Shown here in pieces: positions 7,032 to 27,202 of a DNA stretch of 64,000 bases. The stretch's first letter is position 1. Each line of letters opens with the position of its first letter. Position numbers and translations under genes: made by a program. Below the pieces are notes generated by a model. The model was given only the letters and a program-made list of their open reading frames with translations, did no database searches and was not told the DNA's origin. Source of the DNA: an uncultured bacterium (GTDB lineage: Bacteria; Bacillota_I; Bacilli_A; RFN20; CAG-826); assembly GCA_949290395.1 (NCBI GenBank), contig CASERQ010000004.1:85598-149597 (forward strand). The letters run 5' to 3'.

Positions 7032-7181
7032 ATAATTCTGTCTTAAGCCTAGTGATTTTGTGAATAATTAAAAAGATTCCTTTTGGTACAAAAGCCTCTA
7101 TAAGAATCCTTTTTATGTTGTTACCTACAATTTTGAAACGCTGACAGCCAATTATGATAATTTTATGTTAAAAATCTGTTG

Positions 7182-7190
7182 TGGTATAAT
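7182..7190 (+). promoter_or_regulatory. Extended -10 element (TGGTATAAT) placing the TSS at or next to ATG 7197 (possible leaderless mRNA)
   Basis: TGnTATAAT at 7182-7190. No Shine-Dalgarno sequence between it and ATG 7197. Confidence 0.3.
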
Positions 7191-7196
7191 TTTCAT

Positions 7197-9071: not shown

Positions 9072-9114
9072 TTTTTTAAAAACCATGCAAAGCTTACTTA
9101 TTTAAGGAGAATTT

Positions 9115-9429
9115 ATGATTAAACAAGAAACTGAAGAAAGAATAAAAGAATTTAATAAAGTGCGTAATTGGGATGGATATCATAATGGCAAAGACCTTGC
9201 GATTTCTCTTTCTTTAGAAGCGTCAGAGCTTCTTGAGGTTTATCAATGGAGTAAGGATGATTTAGATTGTTCAAAGAAAATAGACAAGATAAAAGAAGAG
9301 TTGGCTGATGTCTTAATATATGCAATTCAGATTGCTCAAAAATACAATTTAGATATAGACGAAATTATTAATACAAAAATCGATAGAAATGCCATCAAAT
9401 ACCCAGAGAACAAGGAGAACAAATTTTAA
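9115..9429 (+). CDS. MazG-like nucleoside triphosphate pyrophosphohydrolase (small all-alpha NTP-PPase)
   Basis: 104 aa with EASELLE and EELADVLIY EExxE/D-type metal-binding helices typical of MazG/YpjD-type pyrophosphatases. RBS AAGGAGA 6 nt upstream. The stop overlaps the next ATG (TAATG). Confidence 0.6.
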   Translation: MIKQETEERIKEFNKVRNWDGYHNGKDLAISLSLEASELLEVYQWSKDDLDCSKKIDKIKEELADVLIYAIQIAQKYNLDIDEIINTKIDRNAIKYPENKENKF

Positions 9430-11318
9430 TGATTGTTTACTCTAAAACAAAAGCTGACTTTATTAGTGATGTTAGAGATGGTCTTATAGCTGATTTAATT
9501 GAAGAAGAGATGAAAAAGCGTAAGATTGGTTTTAATGTGATTTCTGAACATCGTGCTTGGCAAAATTCTTTACATTATATGAAAGATGTTTTAGATGATG
9601 AAGGTATAGATGGCGAATGTAAAGTTGCAGTTGAACTCCAAATACCTTTAACTTCTAAAAGAGTTGATTTTATTATTTGTGGTTGTGATGAATATGATAA
9701 TAACAATGTTGTAATCGTTGAGTTAAAGCAATGGGATGATAGTAAAGTAAGTGGAAGACCTGATGTAGTTTATGCATATACTGGAAACGCTATGCGATTT
9801 GTTACTCACCCATCTTATCAAGCTTATTCTTATGCAAAAATAATTGAAAATTTTAATGAATCAGTAAATAAATATCATATCAATTTTGAACCATGTTCTT
9901 ATCTTCATAACTACTCTGAAAAGAATAGAAGTCATATACAAAATAAATTATATGAAGAAGCAATTTCTTTAGCACCTATCTTTTTGGCACGTGATAGGAG
10001 TAAACTTACTGATTATATAAAGAAATTTATAAAGAAGAAGGATAGTATCGATATTTTATATCAAATTGACCATGGCAAGTTAAAACCATCAAAATCTTTA
10101 CAAGAAGCAGTAGTTGGTATGTTTAATGGCAACAAAGAGTTTTATTTAATTGATGAACAAAAAGTTGCTTATGAAATAATTAAATCAAAAATAAAAGATT
10201 CATTAAGAGTTGCCGATAAAGCAGAAAATGAATTTGGAAAATACACAATTATAGTGGAAGGTGGTCCAGGAACAGGAAAGAGTGTTGTTGCCCTTCAACT
10301 TTTATGTGATTTAATTAAAAATAATTATTCTGCTTTATACGCCACAAAAACGACCGCAACAAGAGAAGTATATTTTAAAAAATTAAGACAAGAAAAATAC
10401 AAATTATCATATTTAAAGAGCCTATTTGTTGGTACAGGTAGTTTTATTGATGCAAAATTAAATTATTTTGATTGCATAATAGTTGATGAAGCGCATCGAC
10501 TTATAAGTAAAAGTGGAATGTTCCATAACTTAGGCGAAAGTCAAATTAAAGAAATAATTCACGCTTCAAAAGTCTCTGTCTTCTTTATTGACGAAGATCA
10601 AATTGTTACTTCAAGTGATGTAGGAACAATTGACGAAATCATAAAAAGAGCAAAAGAAGAAGGCAGTAAGGTTATTCATAGCGAAGACTTGAAGCTTGTA
10701 AGTCAATTTAGATGTAATGGGTCTGATGGATATCTCAATTTTTTAGATAATTTATTAGGAATAAAAGAAACGGCCAATACTACTTTTGATCTTGACTATG
10801 AACTTAGACTCTTTAATAGCCCAAGCAAAATGAGAGAAGAATTAAGAAAGAAAAATTTTAACAACAAAGCAAGAATGGTCGCAGGTTATTGCTATGATTG
10901 GATTACAAAAGATAAAGTTGATTCATCAGAGTTCGATATTAACCTTGAGGATGATTTCCACGCAAAACGGAACTTTTCAAACACAAAAACTTGGGCAATT
11001 GATGAAAACTCTTTTGATGAAGTTGGCTGTATTCATACCTCACAAGGCTTAGAGTTTGATTATTGCGGAGTCATAATTGGAAAAGACTTAGAGTTTATTA
11101 ATAACAGAGTTGTTACAAATAAATATAATAGAGCCAAGACAGACCAATCTTTAAATGGCATTAAAAATAAAGTATCTGAAGCGGTAAAAGTCGATAGAAT
11201 AATTCGAAATACCTATAAGGTATTATTAACTAGAGGCATGAAAGGCTCTTATATTTATTGTGAAGATAAAAATTTACTTAAATATATTAGTGAAATGACT
11301 GGAATTGCGATTGAGTAA
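9429..11318 (+). CDS. Second nuclease-helicase paralog (RecB-like PD-(D/E)xK nuclease + DUF2075/SF1-like ATPase)
   Basis: Same architecture as 7197..9071: VAVELQ...RVDFIICG...VVIVELKQWDD...QAYSY; Walker A GGPGTGKS; CIIVDEAHR; SQFRC; IHTSQGLEFDYCGVIIG; YKVLLTRGMKGSYIY. Confidence 0.6.
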   Translation: MIVYSKTKADFISDVRDGLIADLIEEEMKKRKIGFNVISEHRAWQNSLHYMKDVLDDEGIDGECKVAVELQIPLTSKRVDFIICGCDEYDNNNVVIVELKQWDDSKVSGRPDVVYAYTGNAMRFVTHPSYQAYSYAKIIENFNESVNKYHINFEPCSYLHNYSEKNRSHIQNKLYEEAISLAPIFLARDRSKLTDYIKKFIKKKDSIDILYQIDHGKLKPSKSLQEAVVGMFNGNKEFYLIDEQKVAYEIIKSKIKDSLRVADKAENEFGKYTIIVEGGPGTGKSVVALQLLCDLIKNNYSALYATKTTATREVYFKKLRQEKYKLSYLKSLFVGTGSFIDAKLNYFDCIIVDEAHRLISKSGMFHNLGESQIKEIIHASKVSVFFIDEDQIVTSSDVGTIDEIIKRAKEEGSKVIHSEDLKLVSQFRCNGSDGYLNFLDNLLGIKETANTTFDLDYELRLFNSPSKMREELRKKNFNNKARMVAGYCYDWITKDKVDSSEFDINLEDDFHAKRNFSNTKTWAIDENSFDEVGCIHTSQGLEFDYCGVIIGKDLEFINNRVVTNKYNRAKTDQSLNGIKNKVSEAVKVDRIIRNTYKVLLTRGMKGSYIYCEDKNLLKYISEMTGIAIE

Positions 11319-14042: not shown

Positions 14043-14322
14043 GCATTAAAAATCACACATGATTTTTAGATTGATATTTGTGTTAATAATTATTTTGATA
14101 AAAGCAAAATAAGAAGCGCCACATTTGAAAATATAAGATAACCAATGTTGACGTTTTCATTTTCTTTAATTGATAATTCTTATATTGTTGGTACCAAAAC
14201 ATAATTAAAGCTTATTTTGTTGAAGTCAGTAAAGGCTTTAAAGACATTTTTATTACCGATAATACATAAAATCACAATTTTTCTCTTAAAAATGTTAAGA
14301 TATGTACGAAAGGTAATAAAAA

Positions 14323-14519
14323 TGTCTAAAATCGGAGATTTTGTAAAAAGTGAAAGAAAGAAAAATGGATTAAAGCAAGAAGATCTTGCTTTATATGCTG
14401 GAGTTAGTACTAAATTTATTAGTCAACTTGAGAACGGAAAAGAGACTTTAAAATTAGATAAAATAAATCAAGTCTTAGATATTTTTGATGTTGAATTAAT
14501 ACCAACAAAAAAGTACTAA
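14323..14519 (+). CDS. XRE-family helix-turn-helix transcriptional regulator (small, HipB/Cro-like)
   Basis: 65 aa from ATG 14323 (MSKIGDFVKSERKKNGLKQEDLALYAGVSTKFISQLENGK), a classic HTH_3 motif. The upstream part of the 14217 track ORF lacks a start context. Confidence 0.5.
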
Positions 14520-14938
14520 GGGTATGAAATTAAAGAATTTTCTAGAATGAAAAAATGGTTGCAAAAGTCCTATTTTTTTTATCAAAATTTTTTACGTTTC
14601 TCGGAATGAAAACCTTACATTTTCCGGAATTAGCTTTTAATATTATTCGATTGTGTTTCTTATTATCAATGATAATTGAATGTATAGATGGTTTTATTGT
14701 TAATTGTTTAATTGGTAAATATTTTATTGGCCTGTGCCCTTATCATCATTTGCGTTAATTGTTCATAGATAACGCAACAAGAAAGAAGTTTTCGTTTACG
14801 TTCAATTAATAATTCTTATAATGTTTTGCTTCTTAAATATAAAGAATTTTAAGATTTGACAAACCTGCCAGTTTTGAACTCTTTTAATCCATATTGCATG
14901 AGTACTAAAATATTTTCGTTAGTCGAAAGGATTTTAGT

Positions 14939-17116
14939 ATGAAAAAGAATAGATTATTATTAGCTCTTTCTTTAGTTGGCTTTTTAACTGGTTGTGGTGC
15001 TCCACAAGAAAATACAGAAGGAAAAAACAGCCAAACTGAAGTCGCTAATGGAAAAGATGGAGTAGGTATTAAATCAATTACACTTACAACAAGTGAAGGA
15101 AATGTTGATACATATACAATTACATATACGAATAACACTACAACAACATTTAAAGTAACTAATGGTGTTAATGGTGAGCAAGGTATTCAAGGTGAACCAG
15201 GAGCTGATGGACATACTCCTGTTATCACAATTGGAGAAAATGGAAATTGGTTTATTGATGGCGTAGATAGTGGCGTTAGCGCAAAAGGTACACAAGGTGA
15301 ACAAGGCCCAGAAGGCCCACAAGGACCTCAAGGTGATCAAGGGGAACCTGGAAAAGATGGTAATGGTATTAAAGAAATCAAGTTAACCAAAACTGAAGGT
15401 AATGTAGATACATATACCATCTATTTTACTGATGGTACAGAAACCACATTCACAGTTACAAATGGTGCTGATGGCGAAGCTGGGATTGACGGTGAACCAG
15501 GTGAAGATGGACATACCCCTGAAATCACAATTGGTGAAAACGGAAACTGGTTTATTGATGGAGTAGATACTGGATTCTCAGCAAAAGGCACACAAGGAGA
15601 ACAAGGTGAACAAGGCCCTCAAGGCGATAAAGGTGAAGCTGGTGAAGATGGCCAAGACGGGAACGGCATTAAAGAAATTAAATTAACTAAAACTGAAGGT
15701 AATGTTGATACTTATACTATTTACTTTACAGATGGTAAAACAACAACTTTTGATATAACTAACGGAACAAGTGGAGAAGACGGAAAATCTGCATTTGAAA
15801 TATTCAAAGAATATAATCCTGATTATAAAGGCACTGAAAAAGATTGGATAAATGACATCATCAACGGTGAATTTAATAAGATTAAAGTTACTTTTGATGC
15901 AAATGGCGGAACTATTGATGGCGAAAACACTGTTGAAATTAAACAAGGGCAATCTTTAGGTGATAATCTTCCTGTTCCAACCAAACCTGGGAAAACATTC
16001 TTAGGTTGGTATACAGGATGGTCTGTGGCTGATGCAGAAGTTAACAAAATGACTCAAATTCATTCGGATTTAACATTGATTGCTAAATGGGACACGTATG
16101 ATGTTAAATTCTTGGATAAAGATGGTAATGTGTTTGAGACTAAAATTGTCAATCACGGGGATAAAGTTAGCGCGCCAGAGGATAAACCTTCATCCATTTT
16201 TGACTCCTATATTTTTTTAGAGTGGGAATATGATTTTGAAAAAATGATCTACTCCGATTTAGAAATTGAATCTTCTTGGAAGGCAAATGATGATGTTATT
16301 TTGACTTTTGGTTCTTATCCACAGTCTGTTGTAAAAGATAACGAGTTAAAAAAGCAACTTAGCAATTTAGAAAATGGACAAGTTTCAGGAAGCATTTTGG
16401 AATTTGATTTTAACGATGATGGTAACAAAGAAAAATATTTGTGCCAAAATGTTGAAAACGAGCGTTTGTCGAATGATAACATGAAAATTGAGAAAGGTAT
16501 AAATTATTTCCTATTTGAACCAATTCGCTGGACTGTTTTGCGCAAGGATGCTTCCGCATATTCATTGGTTACCGAAAGTGTTATCGATGTGCAATATTGG
16601 AATACAGAGTTTTATGAATATAAGGACCCTGAAACTTTTGAAGTAGAACAAATTTATAATAATTATGAAAAATCGACTATAAGAAAATGGTTGAATGATG
16701 AATTTTTAAATTTGGCATTTAATGATGTTGAGAAAAATACGATTTTAACAACTGAAGTTGATAATAGCCCAACTTCAACAAATAACGAGGAAAATAAATA
16801 TTGTTGTAATAATACAATTGATAGAGTTTATCTCTTAAGTAAGCAGGAAATCACTTCTGATCCTTTTTCTAATAGTGTAAGTCAAAAAGATCCCAAACGA
16901 ATAGGCAAAACTACTGATTATGCTAGATGTGTAGCAACAGAAGAAATGTTAATGGATATTGAAACATATGGAAATATAGCGTGGTGGACAAGATCTCCAA
17001 GTGCAAAGTTTAATTATAGTTCTACATGTGTGTGGAATATAGGAAGTGTAGGAGAAAGTTTTAACGTTAATTTTCATAGATATGGAGTTAGACCAGCATT
17101 AAAGGTTTCTATTTGA
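14939..17116 (+). CDS. Surface lipoprotein with collagen-like GXY triplet repeats, repeated GNVDTYTI..TDG..T.F.VTNG modules, a Listeria-Bacteroides (Flg_new) repeat and a conserved C-terminal domain
   Basis: Signal peptide with lipobox LTGCGAP. Runs of G-x-y triplets (GEQGIQGEPGADG, GTQGEQGPEGPQGPQGDQGEPGKDG). Repeated motif HTPVITIGENGNWFIDGVDSG. Flg_new-like VTFDANGGT...GKTFLGWYT. C-terminal region ends WWTRSP...GVRPALKVSI. Confidence 0.7.
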   Translation: MKKNRLLLALSLVGFLTGCGAPQENTEGKNSQTEVANGKDGVGIKSITLTTSEGNVDTYTITYTNNTTTTFKVTNGVNGEQGIQGEPGADGHTPVITIGENGNWFIDGVDSGVSAKGTQGEQGPEGPQGPQGDQGEPGKDGNGIKEIKLTKTEGNVDTYTIYFTDGTETTFTVTNGADGEAGIDGEPGEDGHTPEITIGENGNWFIDGVDTGFSAKGTQGEQGEQGPQGDKGEAGEDGQDGNGIKEIKLTKTEGNVDTYTIYFTDGKTTTFDITNGTSGEDGKSAFEIFKEYNPDYKGTEKDWINDIINGEFNKIKVTFDANGGTIDGENTVEIKQGQSLGDNLPVPTKPGKTFLGWYTGWSVADAEVNKMTQIHSDLTLIAKWDTYDVKFLDKDGNVFETKIVNHGDKVSAPEDKPSSIFDSYIFLEWEYDFEKMIYSDLEIESSWKANDDVILTFGSYPQSVVKDNELKKQLSNLENGQVSGSILEFDFNDDGNKEKYLCQNVENERLSNDNMKIEKGINYFLFEPIRWTVLRKDASAYSLVTESVIDVQYWNTEFYEYKDPETFEVEQIYNNYEKSTIRKWLNDEFLNLAFNDVEKNTILTTEVDNSPTSTNNEENKYCCNNTIDRVYLLSKQEITSDPFSNSVSQKDPKRIGKTTDYARCVATEEMLMDIETYGNIAWWTRSPSAKFNYSSTCVWNIGSVGESFNVNFHRYGVRPALKVSI

Positions 17117-17198
17117 GAAGTTTTCATTATAAAGCCTAAGGAATTACTTATTTATTGTTTTAATTGATTTTCTTTTGGAAATATTGTTTGCTTCCTCC

Positions 17199-17225
17199 TT
17201 TACATCCCCCTCTCATTGTTATAAA
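17199..17225 (+). promoter_or_regulatory. Candidate sigma-A promoter for the metK leader (TTTACA-15-TGtTATAAA)
   Basis: -35 TTTACA at 17199-17204. Extended -10 TGTTATAAA at 17217-17225. Predicted TSS near 17232, at the start of the structured leader. Confidence 0.35.
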
Positions 17226-17231
17226 CTTGTA

Positions 17232-17402
17232 TCACTTATCAAGAATCACACAAATATTAAGTGAAAAAGTGTGATAGCAACTCTCTTAAATAGAGTAAGT
17301 GCTCCTTAATAGCAAGGTCCCACAAGCCTTGAACGATAAGAGTGGATGAAGAAGATTATAACTCCCACAAACTTGTGGGAGTTTTTTAGTAGAGGAATAT
17401 AT
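17232..17402 (+). promoter_or_regulatory. Structured metK 5' leader ending in an intrinsic terminator (riboswitch-like attenuator, possibly a SAM-responsive variant)
   Basis: 5' CUUAUCAAGA ... GAUAAGAG 3' closing helix (17235-17244 / 17335-17342) enclosing three internal hairpins (AUCACAC/GUGUGAU, ACUCU/AGAGU, CAAGG/CCUUG). Then terminator hairpin CTCCCACAA/TTGTGGGAG plus T6 (17362-17387), immediately upstream of the metK RBS. Confidence 0.35.
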
Positions 17403-18563
17403 ATGGAAGAAAGAATTTTATTTACAAGTGAATCTGTTAGTGAAGGACATCCTGATAAGGTCTGTGACCAAATAAGTGATGCAATACTTGATGCAGTATT
17501 AAAAGAAGATAAGGATAGCTTTGTTGCTTGCGAATGTTTTGCAACAACTGATTTCCTTTTAATAGGAGGAGAGATTACAACAAAAGCTAAAGTTGATTAT
17601 GAAAAAGTAGCTCGTGAAGTTATAAAAGATATTGGCTACGATAAAGACGAACTTGGTTTTAACTATAAGACAGTTAAAATCTTAAACAAGATTAAAACCC
17701 AATCTCCTGATATTAGACAAGGCGTATATAATGATGATCCTCTTTTATATGGAGCAGGCGATCAAGGAATTATGTTTGGCTATGCTTCTAATGAATCAGA
17801 AGGATATATGCCTCTTGCAATCTGTATTGCTCATAAACTTGTTAGAATTGCAACTCAACTTAGAAAAGAAGGAAAGTTTAAAAGTGCCCGTCCTGATATG
17901 AAAAGTGAAGTTACAATAGACTATACAGAGACTAAACCTCGCATCAAAACAATCCTAATGTCCTGCCAACATGATCCAGATTATGATGAAAAAGAATTTA
18001 AAGCTTTCATTGAAAATGAAATTATGAAAAAAGTTGCTCTTTCTTTTGATTTAAATACCGACTTTGAAGTTTTAATTAATCTAACTGGTAGATTTGTTCT
18101 TGGAGGACCAGCTGGGGATACAGGATTAACAGGAAGAAAGATTATTGTTGATACGTATGGGGGAAGTGCCCGCCATGGAGGTGGCGCGTTTAGTGGCAAA
18201 GACCCATCAAAGGTTGATAGAAGTGCAGCCTATCTAGCGCGTTACATCGCAAAAAATTTAGTTGCAGCAGGCGTTGCTGATAGACTTGAAGTTCAACTTT
18301 CTTACGCAATAGGCAAGGCTGAGCCTTTATCAGTTTCAATATCAACTTTTAAAACGTCTCACTATAGTGATGCTAAAATTTTAGAAATTATAAGAAAAGT
18401 ATTTGATACGAGACCTGGCGCTATAATTAAAAATTTCTCTTTAAAAGAACCATCGTTTAAATATAAAGATATTTCTAATTATGGACATTTTGGTAGACCA
18501 GATTTAGATTTACCTTGGGAAAAACTTGATAAAGTAGACGAAATTAAATCTCTTTTAAAGTAA
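17403..18563 (+). CDS. metK: S-adenosylmethionine synthetase
   Basis: MEERILFTSESVSEGHPDKVCDQISDAILDA... with canonical GHPDK motif and GGGAFSGKDPSKVDRS signature. The track ORF starts earlier, but ATG 17403 follows the RBS and terminator. Confidence 0.9.
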   Translation: MEERILFTSESVSEGHPDKVCDQISDAILDAVLKEDKDSFVACECFATTDFLLIGGEITTKAKVDYEKVAREVIKDIGYDKDELGFNYKTVKILNKIKTQSPDIRQGVYNDDPLLYGAGDQGIMFGYASNESEGYMPLAICIAHKLVRIATQLRKEGKFKSARPDMKSEVTIDYTETKPRIKTILMSCQHDPDYDEKEFKAFIENEIMKKVALSFDLNTDFEVLINLTGRFVLGGPAGDTGLTGRKIIVDTYGGSARHGGGAFSGKDPSKVDRSAAYLARYIAKNLVAAGVADRLEVQLSYAIGKAEPLSVSISTFKTSHYSDAKILEIIRKVFDTRPGAIIKNFSLKEPSFKYKDISNYGHFGRPDLDLPWEKLDKVDEIKSLLK

Positions 18564-18662
18564 AAACCTTTCAAAAATAGGATATTTTATTAAAAAATTG
18601 CGAGTATATATCATTCGCAATTTTTTAATAAAACGAATATAATAGTTTCTAGAGGTTAATAT

Positions 18663-19115
18663 ATGAATAAATATATGAAAGAGGCTATTAAAGAAGCCAA
18701 GAAAGGTATTTTAAGTGACCATGGAGGTCCTTTTGGTTCAGTAATAGTAAAAGATAATAAGATTATTGCTAGAGCTCATAATGAAGTTATTAAAAGCCAA
18801 GATCCAACGTGTCATGGAGAGATGCAAGCGATAAGAAAAGCATGTAAAAAATTAAAAACTTTTGATTTATCAGGTTGTGAACTTTATACAACAGGTGAGC
18901 CTTGTCCAATGTGTCTAGGGGCAATTTTATGGGCAAGAATTGATAAAGTCTATTATGGATCAAATGTTATAGATACTAAAAAGATTGGATTTGATGATTT
19001 AGAGTTTTATGAAAAACTTAAAAACAAAGATGAGTTTTTAGTTGAGTTAGATAGAGATGCTTGCTTAAAACTCTATGAAGAATATATGGCTTTAGAAAAG
19101 AAGTCGGAGTATTAA
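18663..19115 (+). CDS. Cytidine/deoxycytidylate-deaminase-fold enzyme, guanine deaminase (GuaD)-like / tRNA adenosine deaminase-like
   Basis: 150 aa with HGE...PCPMC zinc-binding motifs (CHGEMQAIRKA; GEPCPMCLGAILWARI). Close in length and sequence pattern to Bacillus GuaD. Confidence 0.6.
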   Translation: MNKYMKEAIKEAKKGILSDHGGPFGSVIVKDNKIIARAHNEVIKSQDPTCHGEMQAIRKACKKLKTFDLSGCELYTTGEPCPMCLGAILWARIDKVYYGSNVIDTKKIGFDDLEFYEKLKNKDEFLVELDRDACLKLYEEYMALEKKSEY

Positions 19116-19206
19116 ATTAGTCTTAGTAATTTAGTAATTATTCTATAAGTTGGTTTTCATTTTTTATCTTAATATATAATGAAATTAGAAGTTGGGGAGT
19201 AATTTA

Positions 19207-19698
19207 TGAAGAAAGCTATACTAATTCCATTTTTAGTTTCGTTATCTCTTTTTCTTGCGGAGAAGAACCAATTTATTTCGAAACAAAAGAGATAAGTGTT
19301 AAATTTCGCTTATATAATGAAATACAAGAACCCGGTAATCCTCGTTATAAAGAGTATCGTTTTGAAATCGATGAAGATTTAAAAGAAAGAATTAATGAAC
19401 ATTATAATGATGTTGTTAATGATAAAGGTGAAAAAGAAGAAGATCTTTATGTTGGAGATGAAAGTATAGGAGATTTTGTTGTTAGTTTAAAAAACGAAGA
19501 CAAATCAGTTTTCATTAAATTTCAAAAGGATAATTATAGAATTGAATATAGTGTTTATGAAGATGAAGACAATAAAAAACAATATCTTAAAGAAGTCTCT
19601 GACAATGCTTTAAACATTTGGAATAATGCTATTTATAACCAACTTGAAGATTATTTAGCTGACGCACCTTTTGAATATAATAACGGAGGACATTGACA
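19207..19698 (+). pseudogene. Small lipoprotein gene disrupted by a frameshift in the signal-peptide region
   Basis: ATG 19207 encodes MKKAILIPFLVSLSLFL and then hits a stop after 30 codons. The +2 frame continues ...FSCGEEPIYFETKEISVKFRLYNE... (about 160 aa) to the TGA at 19696-19698. The frame switch lies at the CTCTTTTTCTT tract (about 19252-19262). Confidence 0.4.
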
Positions 19699-19928
19699 TT
19701 TCTAAATAGTAAGAATATTTTTAAATTTCTTTTGTTAATCTAACGTCTATAGAACTCGCTTCTATATGCGTTTTCTTTTTTGATATTCAGAGAATATCAC
19801 TAAAACATTAAATTAAACTCACTTAAAATAACCACGATACCTATCGCTAAAATTTATTATATCTATATTCAAAAGTGAGTTTTCATACTATAATTAAAGT
19901 ATAAATAAACATAAAGGAGATAATAATT

Positions 19929-20489
19929 ATGAAGTATCAAATTATTGGCAAAAACATTGAAGTAACAGAGGGTATTTCTGCTGCTTTAACTAAAAAATTA
20001 TCCAAGATGGACAAATACTTCAAAAATGACGATGAAGTAAGTTGTAGGGCTGTTGTAAGAAGCTACAAAAAAGGCGAAGCAAAAGTTGAAATTACAATTT
20101 TTACAAAAGACACAACCTTTAGAGCTGAAGTAAAAACTAATGATTTATATGCTGCTTTCGACCTTGCAATTGATAAGCTTCAAGGTCAAATGAGAAAGCT
20201 TAAAACTAAATTAAGAAACCGTTATGACCGTGCTGGAATTGGTAAAGCTCTTGTCTTTGAAGAAATTCAAGATGAAGTCGAAAAAGAAGAAGAGGGAAGT
20301 GTTGTTAGAACTAAGGTCTTAGACCTTAAACCAATCTCCGCTGAAGAAGCAGTTCTTGAAATGGAAGCTATTGGACATGATTTCTATTTATATCTTGATA
20401 CTGATGATGAGAAAATCAGTGTTGTATATAAAAGAGAAGATGGAGGTTATGGTTTACTCCAAGCTTCAAATAAGATCGATATTAAATAG
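19929..20489 (+). CDS. hpf: Ribosome hibernation promoting factor (long form)
   Basis: 186 aa, MKYQIIGKNIEVTEGISAA... N-terminal RaiA/HPF domain plus a C-terminal dimerization domain. Strong RBS AAGGAGA. Confidence 0.85.
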   Translation: MKYQIIGKNIEVTEGISAALTKKLSKMDKYFKNDDEVSCRAVVRSYKKGEAKVEITIFTKDTTFRAEVKTNDLYAAFDLAIDKLQGQMRKLKTKLRNRYDRAGIGKALVFEEIQDEVEKEEEGSVVRTKVLDLKPISAEEAVLEMEAIGHDFYLYLDTDDEKISVVYKREDGGYGLLQASNKIDIK

Positions 20490-20513
20490 TTATAATTAAA
20501 AAAGAGAGATATT

Positions 20514-20544
20514 TCAGGCGACCAAGAGGTCGCCTGATTTTTTA
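20514..20544 (+). terminator. Rho-independent terminator after hpf
   Basis: CAGGCGACC-aagag-GTCGCCTG hairpin followed by T7. Confidence 0.8.
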
Positions 20545-20864
20545 TGATTGTTTTTGTTTTAGAGTCGTTTAATAAGTCTCCATTATTTATGACATACCTA
20601 TATTTAATCCTTTGATGTTGAACATTTGATTTAATTTCCCTATTAAGTTTTTAATGCTTCAACGATGTTATTTTAAAAAAACTTTAGTTTTGCGACCTTT
20701 CTAAGTGAATTTATTGGTTGTTTAATTACATTTACATTGAGTTTAATTCATAATTAAATCAATTAATTCTTTTTATTATGTTAGTTTTTATCATTTTGCA
20801 CTAAGCTTCTTAAGAAATTGAAAATTAAAAGTCTATAATATTAAAGGATTAAGGAGACTTTATT

Positions 20865-22967
20865 ATGCGTAAAAGAAGATTACTTTTAGCTCTTGCTTTA
20901 GTTGGCGTTTTAACAGGGTGCGGAGCACCACAAGAAAATGCGGAGAATAATAAGAATAATCAAAACACTCAGACAGAACCTAGTAATGGAAAAGATGGAG
21001 TTGGAATTGTTTCAATAAATATTACATCTACTGAAGGTAATTCTGATATCTATACAATTACATATACTGATGGAAGTACATCTAATTTTAAAGTTACAAA
21101 TGGAAAAGATGGCGCACAAGGTATCCAAGGGGAGCCTGGTGAAGATGGGCGTACTCCTGTTATTTCTATTGGAGAAAATGGAAACTGGATTATTGATGGC
21201 GTTGATACTGGGTTTAGTGCTCAAGGAGAAAAAGGCGAAACTGGAAATGGGATTGAACTCATTGAAAAAGATAAAAGTGAAGGAAATGTTGATACTTATA
21301 TAATTTATTTCACTGATGGCACAACAAGTTCCTTCACTGTTACAAATGGTGAAAATGGCGAACAAGGTATACAAGGAGAACCAGGTAAAGATGGACATAC
21401 TCCAGTAATCACTATTGGATATAATGGAAACTGGTTTATCGATGGAGAAGATACGGGAGTTTCTGCTAAAGGCCCTGAGGGCGAAAAAGGTGATCAAGGT
21501 GAAGCAGGTAAAGGAATTTATAATATTGTTAAAGATCACACAAATGGAAACGTTGATACATATATTATTTATTTTACTGATGGAAGTCATATTTCTTTTG
21601 ACATAACTAATGGGGAAAATGGAGAAGATGGCCACTCTGCTTTTGAAATATTTAAAGAATATTATCCTGAATATGAAGGAAGTGAAAAAGAGTGGATTGA
21701 AGATATAATTAACGGCAAGTTTAATAAAGTTACTGTTACTTTTGATTTAAATGGTGGAATTTATGAAGGAGAAGAAAAAATTCAAATTCTTAAAGGTCAA
21801 TCAATCGGAGACAATTTGCCAGTTCCAGAGAAAAAAGGGAAAAAATTTTTAGGTTGGTATACTGGATGGACTCCAAATGATGTTCAGGTAACTAAACTTA
21901 CCCCTATAAATTCCGATATTACTTTAGTTGCTAAATGGGACAGCTATGATATTAAATTTTTAGATAGAGATGAAGAAGTTTTTTTCGAAACTACTATAAA
22001 TCATGGTGAAAAGCTTGCAAAACCTAGCTCAAATCCAGAAAGTTTAGGTGATGCTTACACTTTCATTAAATGGAATTATGATTTTGATGATCCTGTTTAT
22101 AGCGATTTAAATATTTCATCGGTTTGGACAACAAATGATGAAGTTATTATGACTTTTGGAACCTATCCGCAATCGGTTGTCAGTGACAAAGAATTAAAAG
22201 AAAAACTTTCTTCTTTAGAAAACGCTGATATAGAAGGAACAGTATTGAAATATGATTCTGATAATGATGGTGAAAAAGAAAGATATATGGTCGCAAGAGG
22301 CGGCAGTGATGATATTATCGCTGACGATGGAAGCGTAATTGAATACGGCATAAATTACTTTAAATATGAACCAATAGAGTGGCGTATTTTGAGAAAAAGT
22401 ACTGAAGAGTATTTTCTTGTTTCACACAAAGTGATTGATTTTCAAGTTTTTGAAAAAGATGGATATGTTTATGAGGATCAAGAAACACATTTAAGTGAAC
22501 ATATAAAAAATGATTACTCAAAGTCTGATATAAGAGAATGGCTTAATAATGTCTTTCTAGTCAATGCCTTTTCTTACAGTGAACAAGAAAGAATTTTGAT
22601 CACAAATGTTGAAAATAACCAGGATTTGTCGACAGATGAAAAAAATGGTTATGTATATGAAAACACAGAGGACAAAGTATTTTTACTTAGTAAAAAAGAC
22701 GTTGAAACATACAGCTTTTCATCTGATTCAGAATTGAAAAAAGAAGATAGGGTTGCTAGAGCAACCGATTATTCAAAAATTTTAAGCAGTGGTGGAATGT
22801 CAATAGATGATGGTTCGTATGGTAACTGTGATTGGCGGACTAGGACGCCTAGACCTTCAAATTTAGGCTATGATTTTACTTATTACGTTTTTCAAGACGG
22901 CGGAGTCCTCTATAATGACACAGACATTAAAAAGGGTGTCCGCCCAGCCATTCGAATTGAACCCTAA
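20865..22967 (+). CDS. Paralogous collagen-like surface lipoprotein (GXY repeats + Flg_new repeat + conserved C-terminal domain)
   Basis: Lipobox LTGCGAPQEN identical in style to 14939..17116. GXY runs (GAQGIQGEPGEDG; GPEGEKGDQGEAGKG). HTPVITIGYNGNWFIDGEDTG. VTFDLNGG...GKKFLGWYT. C-terminus WRTRTP...GVRPAIRIEP. Confidence 0.7.
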   Translation: MRKRRLLLALALVGVLTGCGAPQENAENNKNNQNTQTEPSNGKDGVGIVSINITSTEGNSDIYTITYTDGSTSNFKVTNGKDGAQGIQGEPGEDGRTPVISIGENGNWIIDGVDTGFSAQGEKGETGNGIELIEKDKSEGNVDTYIIYFTDGTTSSFTVTNGENGEQGIQGEPGKDGHTPVITIGYNGNWFIDGEDTGVSAKGPEGEKGDQGEAGKGIYNIVKDHTNGNVDTYIIYFTDGSHISFDITNGENGEDGHSAFEIFKEYYPEYEGSEKEWIEDIINGKFNKVTVTFDLNGGIYEGEEKIQILKGQSIGDNLPVPEKKGKKFLGWYTGWTPNDVQVTKLTPINSDITLVAKWDSYDIKFLDRDEEVFFETTINHGEKLAKPSSNPESLGDAYTFIKWNYDFDDPVYSDLNISSVWTTNDEVIMTFGTYPQSVVSDKELKEKLSSLENADIEGTVLKYDSDNDGEKERYMVARGGSDDIIADDGSVIEYGINYFKYEPIEWRILRKSTEEYFLVSHKVIDFQVFEKDGYVYEDQETHLSEHIKNDYSKSDIREWLNNVFLVNAFSYSEQERILITNVENNQDLSTDEKNGYVYENTEDKVFLLSKKDVETYSFSSDSELKKEDRVARATDYSKILSSGGMSIDDGSYGNCDWRTRTPRPSNLGYDFTYYVFQDGGVLYNDTDIKKGVRPAIRIEP

Positions 22968-23028
22968 TAATTTCATAAAGGACTTATAAAAGAATATAAT
23001 TTTAACGATTTAAGGATACTTATTATGC

Positions 23029-23190
23029 GTAAAAGAAGATTACTTTTAGCTCTTGCTTTAGTTGGCGTTTTAACAGGGTGCGGAGTACCACAAGAAAATG
23101 CGGAGAATAATAAGAATAATCAAAACACTCAGACAGAACCTAGTAATGGAAAAGATGGCTGCTATTTAAAATATTATTTAGTATTTTAAT
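23029..23190 (+). pseudogene. Truncated 5' copy (RBS + signal peptide + first ~44 codons) of the 20865 lipoprotein gene
   Basis: 23029-23160 is near-identical (1-2 mismatches) to 20865-20997, including the upstream TTAAGGAnACTTATT RBS context. The reading frame ends after ...SNGKDGCYLKYYLVF. Confidence 0.5.
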
Positions 23191-23433
23191 TTATGGATAT
23201 TTAACTTTCGTTTTTAAAAAAAGACGCAGATTTGCATTGTTTTTGATGAATTAAGGTACCAAAAGTTAATTTCCTTAGTATAAAATTTAAGATTTAAGAG
23301 ATGGAAGATTGTCATAAACAAATTCCTTTAAAATTTATTCTTAATATTGAGAGATGTTTTTTGTTTCACCAACACAACCTGACACCATTCAAGCGATATT
23401 GTAATTTGACACTCTAGCCTTTAAAATTATGTT

Positions 23434-24267
23434 ATGCAAAAAATTATCGCAACTGATTTAGATGGAACACTTTTTTATCCAAAAGACACTAAAGAAATGA
23501 TTTCTAAACCAAATTTATTTTTCTTACAGAATTTTATAGATAAAGGCGGTGAAGCAATTTTAATTAGTGGTAGAAGTGATGCTTATTGTCGTAAGACTAT
23601 CAAAAAGATTGATAGACCTTGCGCAGCAATCTCTTATAACGGAGCTTGTATTTTTGATGGTGAAAAGATGATTTATCAAAACGCCATTAAAAACTCTGAA
23701 GCTAAAGCAATCATTGATGAAATTTATAAAACTTATAAGAATCATGGTGTTTTCTTAATGACAGAAAATGGCTTATCAATTCATCTTGTTTATAAAAGTA
23801 AACTTATTAGATATGGCTTTAGACTATATTACAAAACACAAGGTATCTATACTGAAAATCTTTTGCCTTACGAAGATCAATATGAAAAAGAATTAAATGA
23901 AGGCAAGATTTTTAAGATTATGATTTATTTTGGTCTTGGAAAAAGAATGCAAAATAAAGCAAAGCAAGCTAATACGATTTTAAGAAATACTTATGATAAT
24001 GTTGAATGCAATTGGAGCAGAAACGTTATCGAAATCACTGCAAAAGACTGCTCAAAAGCAAAAGCTTTAAAATATTTACTTGAAAGTCAAGATGCTCTTG
24101 ATAAAGAAGTTTATGTTGTCGGAGATAGTGGAAACGACATTTCACTTTTTAAAGCTTTTCCTAAAAATTCATTTTGTATGGGCCACGCCCCTGACGCCGT
24201 GAAAAAATATGCAAAATATACAATAGATAAATTCGAAGATTTATCTAGATATATTTTCGAAAAATAG
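23434..24267 (+). CDS. Cof-type HAD-IIB family hydrolase (sugar phosphatase-like)
   Basis: IATDLDGTLF motif I and GDSGNDISLF motif IV. 277 aa. Confidence 0.7.
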   Translation: MQKIIATDLDGTLFYPKDTKEMISKPNLFFLQNFIDKGGEAILISGRSDAYCRKTIKKIDRPCAAISYNGACIFDGEKMIYQNAIKNSEAKAIIDEIYKTYKNHGVFLMTENGLSIHLVYKSKLIRYGFRLYYKTQGIYTENLLPYEDQYEKELNEGKIFKIMIYFGLGKRMQNKAKQANTILRNTYDNVECNWSRNVIEITAKDCSKAKALKYLLESQDALDKEVYVVGDSGNDISLFKAFPKNSFCMGHAPDAVKKYAKYTIDKFEDLSRYIFEK

Positions 24268-24298
24268 TAAAATAGTTAAAGACAAAAAGGAGATATAT

Positions 24299-25165
24299 AT
24301 GGAAACTATTAGTAGAGTTATTGTTTCTTTAGTTTATTACAATTCATTAGTTAGAGACACTCTCGAATATACCTTAAATCGTCCTAATGGATATGATGTA
24401 AAGTATTATGATTACAAAAGAAATGGAATTGTAAACGAAATCAAACTCAACACCCCTCTTAAAGCATTCTTAGATCAAAATGGTGAAAAAGGTGATGAGT
24501 TAAGAAAGAAACTTGAACAATATGGTGAAGATTTTTATAGCGATACATCAACTGTAATTAAAAAAGCTAGTGATGGATTAAGAGTTGACCATGCTCAAAA
24601 CGTTAAGATTTTTGAATCAACAATCCCACTTCATGAAGAAATAAATGCTGTTATTAGATTGCACGTTGATTTTGCTCGTAAAAATAACACTTTAAAAGAT
24701 AAGATTGTCAATCTTGTTGCAGCTGATGAAAGATTTTATAGAGCGGTTGCTTTGCTTTCATTAAATGGAGAAATCGATCGTCAATTTGCTGAATTCAATA
24801 AAGCAATGAGAGAATCAAAAGGCGAACCAACTCCAGCTTCAAACTTCATTCAAAACGATTTAAATACTCTTGTTAGATGTTTAGCTACTGTTAGACAAGG
24901 TGCAACATGTAATGATGAACTTTATACAGATGCATTAGATGCTGTTTTCCATAGCGTAGAAATGATGAATGGAAAAAGAGCTGTTCCAAAAGGAAAAACA
25001 TTTGCTGATGTCTTCAATGAAGCAAACATTAAAATTGGTGCTTTTGTAAGAGATAGTGAAGCTCAATGGAGAGCAAACTATCAACCACTTTTAAATGAAC
25101 TTGTTGCTGATAACCAAAAAGCAAGAGAAGCTCAAGCTCAAGCAAATAACACTGAAGCAAAGTAA
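24299..25165 (+). CDS. Hypothetical cytoplasmic protein
   Basis: 288-aa ORF with RBS AAGGAGA. No recognizable motifs. Confidence 0.35.
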   Translation: METISRVIVSLVYYNSLVRDTLEYTLNRPNGYDVKYYDYKRNGIVNEIKLNTPLKAFLDQNGEKGDELRKKLEQYGEDFYSDTSTVIKKASDGLRVDHAQNVKIFESTIPLHEEINAVIRLHVDFARKNNTLKDKIVNLVAADERFYRAVALLSLNGEIDRQFAEFNKAMRESKGEPTPASNFIQNDLNTLVRCLATVRQGATCNDELYTDALDAVFHSVEMMNGKRAVPKGKTFADVFNEANIKIGAFVRDSEAQWRANYQPLLNELVADNQKAREAQAQANNTEAK

Positions 25166-25179
25166 TTTAAAGGATTAAA

Positions 25180-25614
25180 ATGAGTAAAGAAAAAATTACT
25201 AATAAAGAAAAGAAGAGTAAAAGCGTTCTTAAAGTTTTTACACCAAAGCAACTCTTTTGGTTTATTCTTGGAGTTTTGATTACAGTAAATGCAGTAATTT
25301 TCTTAGTCCTTGGATTAATCAATGATTATGCTAATCTTGCATTCTCTCCATTTGAAGCTGCAAATGAAGGAATGAAAGCAGCACTTGGTGGCATTGATTT
25401 TAAATGGTTTGGCGTAATTACTTTAATCTTAGGGACAATTATTTATTCGCTTGCTTTATCTTTCTCTGCTAAATCAGCTGAAAGAGAAAAAGAAAGAGAA
25501 GAAAGAAGAAAACAACGTAGATTCTTCTCAAATATTGATGGAGAAAAAGTTGTTGCAAGTTTTAACACATCAACTTCTGAAGGAACAAATCCTTTACCTC
25601 CTGAGAGTAAATAA
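25180..25614 (+). CDS. Small membrane protein (2-3 TM helices) with a charged C-terminal tail
   Basis: Hydrophobic segments FWFILGVLITVNAVIFLVLGLI and FGVITLILGTIIYSLALSF. RBS AAAGGA. Confidence 0.35.
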   Translation: MSKEKITNKEKKSKSVLKVFTPKQLFWFILGVLITVNAVIFLVLGLINDYANLAFSPFEAANEGMKAALGGIDFKWFGVITLILGTIIYSLALSFSAKSAEREKEREERRKQRRFFSNIDGEKVVASFNTSTSEGTNPLPPESK

Positions 25615-25633
25615 AAATTAAATCTTTTAAAAT

Positions 25634-25663
25634 TAACTGCTAGTTTCTTCTAGCAGTTTTTTA
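25634..25663 (+). terminator. Rho-independent terminator
   Basis: AACTGCTAG-tttcttc-TAGCAGTT plus a T6 run. Confidence 0.7.
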
Positions 25664-25757
25664 TTAAAAGTAAGCTTAATTTTAAAAAACCTTGCAAATC
25701 TGAGGTATTTTAAAAACAATATTAAAATTATTTTTCTAAAACAAGCGTTACAAAACT

Positions 25758-25792
25758 AAAAAAAACAAATAAAAAAACGACCGAAGTCGTTA
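25758..25792 (-). terminator. Rho-independent terminator downstream of tRNA-Ser (minus strand)
   Basis: On the minus strand: AACGACTTCGGTCGTT hairpin followed by a T-rich run (TTTTTTTATTTGTTTTTTTT). Confidence 0.7.
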
Positions 25793-25802
25793 GTTGTCAA
25801 TC

Positions 25803-25892
25803 TGGCGGAGAAAAGGGGATTTGAACCCCTGCTTCCTTTTACAGAACTATGAGCTTTCCAAGCCCACCCCTTCAGCCTCTTGGGTATTTCTC
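25803..25892 (-). tRNA. tRNA-Ser (anticodon GGA), class II with long variable arm
   Basis: Reverse complement reads GGAGAAATACCCAAGAGGCTGAAGGGGTGGGCTTGGAAAGCTCATAGTTCTGTAAAAGGAAGCAGGGGTTCAAATCCCCTTTTCTCCGCCA. It has a 7-bp acceptor stem, anticodon loop TTGGAAA (GGA), about a 20-nt variable arm, T-arm GGGGTTCAAATCCCC and an encoded CCA. Confidence 0.85.
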
Positions 25893-25943
25893 CGTGCGGA
25901 TAGTATTTTATCATTAACTAAGAGGATTTGTCATTAATTTTTT

Positions 25944-26933
25944 ATGAAAGAATTTCTAATCACAAAAGAAAACGCTAATCAAAGAGCTGATAAGTTTATA
26001 AAGAAGTATCTTAACGAAGCTCCTTTATCTTTTATATACAAAACTTTTAGAAAAAAAGATATCAAAGTTAATAATAAGTGGATCAAGGAAAACTATATTT
26101 TAAAAGAAGGGGATGTTTTAAAAGTTTATATAAGTGATAAAAAAATCGCTGAATTTAATAAACCTATAGATATTAGTGAAATCAAAACTAAAGTAAATTT
26201 AGATATTGTTTATGAAGATGAAAACATTTTAATTGTAAACAAAAGAAAAGGCATATTAATTCATGGGGATATGAACGAAAAAAGAAGAACTTTATCTAAC
26301 GAAGTTTTAACTTATCTATATCAAAAAGGGGAATTTAAAAATGATGGGAAATCTTTTATTCCTTCTCCAGTTCATAGATTGGATAGAAATACATCAGGCC
26401 TAGTTATATTTGCTAAAAACTTATTTTCTTCTCAAGTTATGCTTGAACTTTTAAAGGATCACGAAAATATTTTAAAAACCTATCTTGTTTTAAGTTTTAA
26501 TAAAGCCAAGGAAGAAGAAGGCATGATTGACCTTCCTTTAATTAAAGACGAGAAAAATGGCTTTGTTAAAGTTGGAAGTATAGATAGCGGAGCAAAAAGC
26601 GCTAAAACGCTTTTTAAAGTAATTGATGAAAACGAATCCTATACTTTATTTAAAGCAAGCTTAATAACTGGAAGGACCCATCAATTAAGAGTTCATTTTG
26701 CTTCAATTGGTTGTCCTATAGTTGGGGATGAAAAATATGGTGACTTTTCAAAGAATAAATCTTTTGAAAAAGAATTTAACTATCGAACACAGTTTTTAAT
26801 TGCTTATAAAATTTCTTTTAAAGAAGTTACAGGCGAACTTTCTTATTTATCAAACAAGACTTTTAAAGCTAATATTTCCGAGAAAGAATTAAAGATATTA
26901 AAAGAACTTGGCTTAAAAGTTAAAGATATATAA
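25944..26933 (+). CDS. RluA/RluD-family rRNA pseudouridine synthase with N-terminal S4 domain
   Basis: Catalytic motif HRLDRNTSGLVIFAKN. 329 aa. Confidence 0.75.
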   Translation: MKEFLITKENANQRADKFIKKYLNEAPLSFIYKTFRKKDIKVNNKWIKENYILKEGDVLKVYISDKKIAEFNKPIDISEIKTKVNLDIVYEDENILIVNKRKGILIHGDMNEKRRTLSNEVLTYLYQKGEFKNDGKSFIPSPVHRLDRNTSGLVIFAKNLFSSQVMLELLKDHENILKTYLVLSFNKAKEEEGMIDLPLIKDEKNGFVKVGSIDSGAKSAKTLFKVIDENESYTLFKASLITGRTHQLRVHFASIGCPIVGDEKYGDFSKNKSFEKEFNYRTQFLIAYKISFKEVTGELSYLSNKTFKANISEKELKILKELGLKVKDI

Positions 26934-27138
26934 ACCCATATAAAATTGTTAATTTCTCTGCAGAAATTAGGTTTTTTGTCTAGAAACTAGATAAATATAA
27001 GCATGAAAAAATTTTTAATCATAACCTTAGTTTTGCATTATAACTTTAGTAAAGTTAGGAAACGAGTTTAAAGTTATGTTTTGCGACTCACAAATAAAAT
27101 TGTAATAAATTCGCTATAAAATTTTCTATAGTAGGCAT

Positions 27139-27170
27139 TAAAAAAAGCGATATTTATCGCTTTTTTTAAT
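27139..27170. terminator. Bidirectional rho-independent terminator between convergent genes
   Basis: AAAGCGATA-ttt-ATCGCTTT perfect hairpin flanked by an A-run upstream and a T7 run downstream. Confidence 0.75.
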
Positions 27171-27202
27171 CCTCAACTGTTAAAGATAAGCTATTTTAAG
27201 TC

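Follow-up and report, generated by a model that had tools for sequence, protein, structure and literature searches.

A truncated lipoprotein gene start, most likely the remnant of a lost tandem family member, and the direct repeat it forms around a surface-protein gene in an uncultured gut Bacilli lineage

In the 64,000-nucleotide stretch of DNA analysed here (hereafter the window; contig CASERQ010000004.1, positions 85,598 to 149,597 of the forward strand; approximately 30% G+C, standard genetic code, Bacilli/"Mollicutes" lineage), the gene of a large surface lipoprotein (gene B) is followed by a short open reading frame (ORF), referred to below as the stub, which begins almost exactly as gene B does and then breaks off. 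This raises the question of what the fragment is, where it came from, and whether it plays any role at present. The features needed to address this question are given below, with the repeat copy at the 5′ end of gene B designated A and the one in the stub designated A′.

14939..17116, + strand: gene A, encoding a 725-aa paralog of the gene B product (54% amino acid identity)
20826..20998, + strand: repeat copy A, with a TATAAT −10-like box (20834–20839), the ribosome binding site (RBS) AAGGAG, and the ATG at 20865; its coding part is the first 44–45 codons of gene B, i.e., signal peptide and linker, ending at NGKDG
20865..22967, + strand: gene B, encoding a 700-aa surface lipoprotein (from translation and Pfam)
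22968..22986, + strand: spacer of 19 nt between the gene B stop and the homology of copy A′, without a terminator
22987..23158, + strand: repeat copy A′, composed of a diverged promoter/RBS part (22987–23024; TATAAT −10-like box at 22995–23000, RBS AAGGAT; the stub's own upstream sequence is CTTATAAAAGAATATAATTTTAACGATTTAAGGATAC) and 134 coding bases (23025–23158)
23025..23189, + strand: stub ORF of 54 aa, MRKRRLLLALALVGVLTGCGVPQENAENNKNNQNTQTEPSNGKDG followed by CYLKYYLVF and the TAA stop at 23187–23189; the predicted lipopeptide begins CGVPQENAENNK
23158..23159, + strand: truncation junction GATGG/CTGC, the same in 13 of 13 strains

In the alignment of the window with itself, positions 23025–23158 match 20865–20998 at 133 of 134 bases, and the sole coding mismatch (C20926 versus T23086) changes codon 21 from Ala to Val. 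An ungapped repeat search paired 20841–20998 with 23001–23158 (94%), and with BLAST the repeat extended to 20826–20998 and 22987–23158 with 8 mismatches and one gap, the homology being weaker in the 39 nt upstream of the copied ATG (to 20826/22987), where 7 mismatches and a 1-nt deletion are located. The first 60 nt of the stub occur exactly twice in the window (at 20865 and 23025; 0 expected from 100 shuffles), no inverted copy of the repeat was found there by the repeat search or the exact-match count, and the two copies are spaced by 2,160 nt, which equals one gene-B unit. The near-identical repeat of the lipoprotein gene start that had been reported in the earlier note, made from the letters of the window only, is therefore real, with the correction that the ATG of the copy lies at 23025 and not at 23029. 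The RBS context, which that note had counted as part of the repeat, is similar and not identical (AAGGAG versus AAGGAT), and the abrupt divergence into AT-rich DNA starts at 23159 and reaches the stop after 9 codons instead of 8, which makes the product 54 aa long and not 53.

Bacterial lipoprotein signal peptides are composed of a charged n-region, a hydrophobic h-region, and a lipobox of the consensus [LVI][ASTVI][GAS]C about 15–35 residues from the start. The peptide shared by gene B and the stub is a canonical example (MRKRR / LLLALALVGV / LTG/C19) followed by a linker, and in both ORFs the signal peptide is of the signal peptidase II type, with Cys19 as the lipobox cysteine. The copied part ends at the NGKDG motif, which opens the first collagen-like repeat module of gene B; thus, the junction 23158/23159 coincides with the point where, in this lipoprotein family, the linker passes into the first repeat module. 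Gene B continues with three collagen-like/beta modules, a Flg_new domain (InlB B-repeat; PF09479 at 2e-10) and a C-terminal DUF6273 (PF19789 at 2e-21), the latter modelled as C-type-lectin-like (PMC10743442). The stub ends at residue 45 of this architecture, lacks both PF09479 and PF19789, and is therefore a fragment of the family rather than a member of it. Gene A was rejected as its source, as the 5′ end of that gene is only about 75–79% identical to the repeat.

The HPF gene (ribosome hibernation factor, 19929–20489) was used as an anchor, which yielded 80 loci from other species. The order usual for nearly all of them is metK, tadA-like deaminase, HPF, HAD hydrolase, 288-aa gene, 144-aa gene, and pseudouridine synthase, and in about 75 related genomes, including six congeners whose HPF is 88–91% identical, HAD begins 90–210 nt past HPF, without gene B or the stub between them. 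Since HPF lies directly beside HAD in these relatives, gene B and the stub are a lineage-specific insertion, which, with the 330-nt left flank of gene B, amounts to approximately 2.7 kb and lies just past the HPF terminator. The flanks of the repeat region are composed of the following elements.

20490..20825, + strand: left flank, i.e., the HPF terminator (20514–20537) with a T-run, then about 290 nt of non-coding DNA
23159..23208, + strand: AT-rich DNA past the break, about 50 nt, without a match outside the species
23209..23433, + strand: ancestral HPF-HAD spacer, with the conserved motif TTTTTAAAAAAAGACGCAGATTTGCATTGTTTTT, 80% identical to congener L010
within 23209..23433, + strand: HAD promoter region, TTGTAA-17-TAAAAT, with the HAD ATG at 23434

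The approximately 290 nt of non-coding DNA in the left flank are not present in the congeners and came in with gene B. Comparison of 23159–23215, 22968–23024, and the left flank with the window and all fetched loci gave matches to conspecific strains only; the segment 23159–23208 matched neither the 3′ ends or flanks of family genes nor any non-conspecific fetched locus, and the 3′ flank of gene A is unrelated to the sequence past the break. A common descent of the left and right flanks from a duplicated ancestral spacer was rejected (local alignment score of 18.5 against a shuffle mean of 18.0, not significant), and the ancestral motif is convincingly kept in the right flank only. No intrinsic terminator was found between gene B, the stub and HAD. 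An RNA element was likewise rejected, as Rfam gave no match in the region at gathering thresholds and only chance-level ones at E up to 1 (20480–23460).

Two minor features of this intergenic region are shared with related species. Past the HPF terminator, several relatives (L003–L010) carry a motif of about 25 nt (AAAAAtAGTTgAGaTTTGCA...TTTT), which is also present in the right flank of the window (23209–23248), with a weaker look-alike at about 20672–20694. At the start of the HAD hydrolase gene (23399–23436) the TAAAAT −10 box ends about 9 nt before the ATG and there is no Shine-Dalgarno sequence; because the same layout is kept in congeners L003–L009, the HAD mRNA may be leaderless or carry a very short leader.

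Exact-protein look-ups returned twelve further contigs of the same species, originating from different samples. Gene B 3′ end, 19-nt spacer, stub, GATGG/CTGC junction, and HAD follow each other in the same order in ten independent assemblies (the window, L001/L084, L002, L083, L085, L091, L092, L093, L094, and L096), and the junction common to all 13 strains points to a single, old truncation event. Scanning of JGI metagenomes gave no match to the exact 29-mer at the break, and the scan with the gene B protein found there only relatives of up to 36% identity and no additional strains.

Homologous recombination between direct repeats loops out the intervening segment and leaves one hybrid repeat. 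The stub and the gene B 5′ end constitute such a repeat, 173 bp long (134 bp of it perfect ancestrally) and bracketing gene B, and recombination between its copies would loop out 2,160 bp, comprising the gene B body, its stop, and the spacer, with one hybrid copy left behind. A locus of exactly this structure was found in L088 (sample ERZ16268051), a 62-kb scaffold 94.5–97% identical to the window, in which HPF, the left flank, one repeat copy, the same junction, and HAD are arranged in this order, without gene B. The BLAST segments of L088 (window 17179–20998 and 22987–27060) overlap by exactly the 173-nt repeat, and the scaffold is exactly 2,160 nt shorter than the window at this place. Its single repeat copy is A-type at six upstream diagnostic sites and A′-type from RBS position −9 on, i.e., the switch point lies between −17 and −9. 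The comparison of these sequences robustly supports removal of gene B in L088 by recombination between the repeats. In the second single-copy contig, L095 (sample ERR10610544), the copy keeps the A-type up to and including the RBS, and from codon 19 on it has the A′ allele otherwise private to L094, which places the switch between −9 and codon 19 and makes it different from that of L088. Gene B of L095 was probably removed in the same manner; it should be stressed that L095 is a Logan contig of 1,250 nt, for which a de Bruijn mis-join across a 63-nt shared stretch is conceivable.

Flanking direct repeats and variants carrying one hybrid copy without the intervening DNA are thus both present in this species, and the locus, with its 173-bp direct repeat around a 2-kb gene, resembles direct-repeat deletions of general bacterial genetics, differing from them in that it is known from the comparison of metagenome assemblies alone. 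The homologous-recombination enzymology of the loss would be that of the textbook case. Regarding the direction of the change, the neighbour-joining tree of 780 nt of the right flank groups single-copy L088 with L096, which has gene B, and L094, also with gene B, with single-copy L095, while the second clade of the tree consists of two-copy strains only. As deletion and Campbell-type insertion share one signature, the polarity is a matter of parsimony; each single-copy strain is sister to a strain with the gene B 3′ end and stub, and we infer deletion, rather than insertion, as the parsimonious direction. The loss probably occurred twice according to this tree. The earlier statement that rearrangement is ongoing in this family was thus borne out, as there are strains from which gene B appears to have been deleted by recombination between the stub and the gene B 5′ end.

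The stub itself is decaying. Apart from L091, in which 22 nt are duplicated in tandem, all strains that carry copy A have it in the same form. In copy A′, Ala21Val and the 1-nt deletion before the ATG are limited to the sublineage of the window, the lipobox TGC is changed to AGC (Cys19Ser) in L088, L094, and L095, Thr37Lys is present in L094 and L095, and Thr37Ala with Gly45Asp in L091 and L097. Furthermore, the start codon is changed from ATG to AAG in L088, together with Arg2Cys, and an 8-nt deletion shifts the frame in L091. Variation is greatest in the unique 9-residue tail of the ORF, with Y47H, L48S, K49E, or a 1-nt deletion in various strains. In total, about 10 nonsynonymous and 0 synonymous substitutions and two indels were counted in the stub among 13 strains, a number too small for a formal dN/dS; the counts come from reading the strain alignment, as automated site counts, inflated through misaligned indels, were discarded. 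A polymorphic stub beside an invariant copy A indicates that copy A is not now correcting copy A′ by gene conversion. Truncated at a fixed junction in comparison with its 700-aa neighbour, and with disabling mutations segregating among the strains, the stub is a gene remnant, and its ORF is best read as a pseudogene.

The pattern of differences between the copies bears on the origin of this remnant. Since Ala21Val is limited to the sublineage of the window, the ancestral coding part of the stub matched copy A at 134 of 134 sites. In the 39 nt upstream, 7 mismatches are fixed, and this heterogeneity (7/39 versus 0/134, Fisher p = 1.9e-5) favours a second, distinct tandem family member over a fresh self-copy of gene B. 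The stub is therefore read as a non-functional 5′ remnant, most likely of a lost tandem family member, whose role is now structural, i.e., that of a direct repeat; we assign to this reading a probability of roughly 0.8. According to the model, a second family member once stood in tandem past gene B and would have been truncated either in place or upon insertion of the gene-B segment between HPF and HAD. It would have been severed exactly at the start of its first module, so that the −10 box, a weakened RBS, the signal peptide, and the linker were kept and joined, past the cut, to an unrelated AT-rich spacer. The observed heterogeneity would be expected from two neighbouring members whose promoters differed and whose 5′ coding ends had been homogenised. 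The tandem-paralog origin, which had been offered earlier as the scar of a deleted tandem paralog, is plausible and is the one we prefer because of the diverged upstream part. A complete second tandem gene was not found in any strain or relative, nor was a donor locus for the stub among the fetched loci, the family hits, and the JGI scan, and no other orphan 5′ fragments were present beside family members in congeners L086 and L090.

With bacterial 5′ gene remnants in general, the stub shares truncation relative to a full-length neighbour, one fixed junction to unrelated sequence, and the gathering of start-codon, frameshift, and missense lesions among strains. It is unlike them in that it retains a full promoter/RBS/signal-peptide unit with an ORF still open in most strains, and in that its coding part matched the neighbour perfectly while the upstream part was 18% diverged.

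Another origin would be a simple partial duplication, in which the stub is the promoter and 5′ end of gene B itself and was never a separate member; it might have arisen by tandem duplication of gene B with later loss of the second body, or by duplicative insertion of 172 nt. The ancestral identity of the coding part (133/134 in the window today), the spacing of exactly one gene-B unit, and the fact that, among 120 family hits, gene B is the only protein with this N-terminus are all consistent with such an event. Nevertheless, a copy made at one time should age uniformly, which the upstream and coding parts did not, and the model holds only if gene conversion subsequently acted on the coding part alone or if the upstream segment was imported. 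We regard this origin as unlikely.

A further alternative concerns the order of events and draws on how little the gene-B block has diverged. Gene B together with the left flank (20490–22986) differs among strains by 0.1–0.2%, i.e., about ten times less than the flanks, while in 23025–25165 the downstream housekeeping genes diverge by 1–2% and the stub and spacer by about 2.7%. In the comparison of the window with L091, 5 of 2535 sites differ across the left flank, gene B, and the spacer, 11 of 409 across the stub coding part and right flank, and 25 of 1701 across HAD with the next gene. This difference suggests that the gene-B block may have spread recently among strains by recombination, or may have been re-acquired. 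It could be proposed that the single-copy stub is older and that gene B has been gained and lost with the stub as a homology arm, either by integration of a circle or by transformation with DNA from two-copy strains, so that the locus toggles population-wide. In addition to the divergence values, the low-divergence block of L091 stops at the stub start, and the left flank of L088 is an old allele, 7.6% diverged. On the other hand, any donor must already contain both copies, together with the spacer and the divergent upstream part, and the origin of this arrangement is then left unexplained; moreover, single-copy strains nest among two-copy strains in the tree, and in L001, L002, and L083 the identical block crosses the stub, which makes it an inconsistent boundary. 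This order of events is improbable in our view.

In a related proposal, which we consider a rather remote prospect, the stub would be kept because the repeat makes gene B detachable, constituting a population-level on/off switch without a dedicated recombinase. The low divergence of the gene-B block and the at least four independent ways in which gene B was inactivated among about 12 strains are compatible with it. If true, a population could shed its lectin-like lipoprotein, e.g., under phage or antibody pressure, and the surviving stub would serve as the homology arm for regaining the near-identical gene-B block from neighbours.

Another rival of the remnant reading is that the product of the 54-aa ORF is made and, after processing at Cys19, maintained as a functional lipopeptide of 36 residues. 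In the window the promoter-like −10/−35 site, the AAGGAT RBS, the signal peptide, and the lipobox are intact, the ORF is annotated by gene callers in several assemblies, and it is intact in 9 of the 13 strains, so that expression in the window strain is conceivable. However, the loss of the start (L088), of the lipobox cysteine (L088, L094, and L095), or of the frame (L091), in addition to the exclusively nonsynonymous drift and the most variable tail, does not support a conserved lipopeptide, nor an active expression site. Moreover, the only Pfam match of the stub is a signal-peptide match to DUF6567 of 18.4 bits, below the cutoff of 27, and the protein search with the 54-aa product returned nothing outside its own cluster. 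The expressed lipopeptide of the earlier note thus did not withstand comparison of the strains and is very improbable.

That note had also considered the stub as the remnant of an expression site for cassette recombination. Such sites are known from the vsa locus of M. pulmonis and the vpma locus of M. agalactiae (PMC4534519), where variable lipoproteins are expressed from a single 5′ site and a recombinase joins the conserved 5′ end to silent bodies. Similarly, the gene B family consists of surface lipoproteins with repeat modules in a wall-less-like gut Bacilli lineage, and a fixed point, exactly at the boundary between signal peptide/linker and body, divides its conserved promoter and N-terminal coding sequence from the body. 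In contrast to vsa and vpma, no promoterless family bodies are present in the 64-kb window; a tblastn search of it with family proteins yielded, apart from genes A and B and the stub, nothing but a separate broken LRR_5 gene with an N-terminus of its own. No integrase, resolvase, recombinase, or transposase domains were annotated among the called genes of four strains (L083, L084, L088, and L091) in the region corresponding to 5–36 kb of the window. The repeats have the direct and not the inverted orientation, the sequence next to the 5′ end is either gene B or the one shared spacer in each of the 13 strains, and the stub is unused and gathers inactivating mutations. An expression site is thus extremely doubtful here.

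A diversity-generating retroelement was rejected as well. The fold of DUF6273 is a target of such elements in gut phages (PMC10743442), and gene B resembles their targets in ending with DUF6273 and in having a near-identical repeat of about 130 nt adjoining the gene. This repeat is, however, located at the 5′ signal-peptide end and not in the lectin region, the mismatch is C/T and not adenine-specific, no reverse transcriptase is annotated nearby, and the 3′, lectin-domain half of gene B is invariant among strains (99.8–99.9% identity).

The assembly artefact named earlier as the refuting scenario, i.e., a mis-joined or duplicated repeat, has in its favour only the generic risk that repeats pose in short-read metagenome assemblies and can be dismissed, because the order and junction agree across ten independent assemblies from different samples and the stub has fixed upstream differences and strain-specific polymorphisms of its own that are not seen in the gene B 5′ end.

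The locus is a natural example showing that a leftover of 173 bp suffices to allow a 2-kb surface-protein gene to be deleted, and strains that have gene B exist alongside strains that lack it in this uncultured, reduced-genome gut Bacilli lineage. Gene loss via a direct repeat is an ordinary and well-documented mechanism, and no new mechanism is involved here. For annotation, it cautions against taking the 54-aa "lipoprotein" predicted by gene finders in several assemblies for a functional gene, as it is a pseudogene. Gene B appears as a surface protein under strong turnover, since nonsense mutation, frameshift, module loss, and full deletion are all found among close strains: an in-frame deletion of a 70-aa module between QGIQGEP repeats in L083, a stop after residue 538 in L092 and L093, and the 22-nt tandem duplication in L091, which is located in the 5′ end and shifts the frame. 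This turnover hints at host or phage pressure.

Several other loci were noted in the window and its relatives. In L094, a secreted Peptidase_C70-like gene (positions 1–701 of that contig, opposite strand) abuts gene B at the equivalent of window position 22679; the join reflects either a further rearrangement removing the gene B 5′ part or a chimeric contig. Upstream of HPF, a small lipoprotein gene (19206–19696) is inserted between the deaminase and HPF genes, which in congeners L003 and L004 are separated by a gap of about 115 nt; it is frameshifted within the signal peptide in the window and intact in L088, where it encodes 163 aa (MKKAILIPFLVSLSLFSCGEE...).

The locus of gene A (14217–17345) is variable too: L083 has an unrelated gene of 589 aa without a Pfam domain in its place, and in L088 an HTH-HipA toxin-antitoxin module comes after gene A, with two HTH genes (about 285 nt, 80% identical) forming direct repeats around gene A. 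At 27060–27192, a DarT-Macro (DarTG-like) toxin-antitoxin pair of about 2 kb is present in L088 and L091, and not in the window, L083, L084, and L092.

A strain-variable island (30062–33544), missing from L083 and L092, carries a large surface-protein gene with a signal peptide, collagen-like repeats, Flg_new, and LRR_5. This gene is split in the window into ORFs 30151–30630, 30747–31079, and 31124–33448, contains a 45-nt repeat at 30484 and 30912, and corresponds to an 894-aa product called in L084. Finally, two helicase-like genes of 630 aa (SLFN-g3_helicase, according to their L088 equivalents) flank a MazG-like gene at 7179–11318, which may constitute a defence module.
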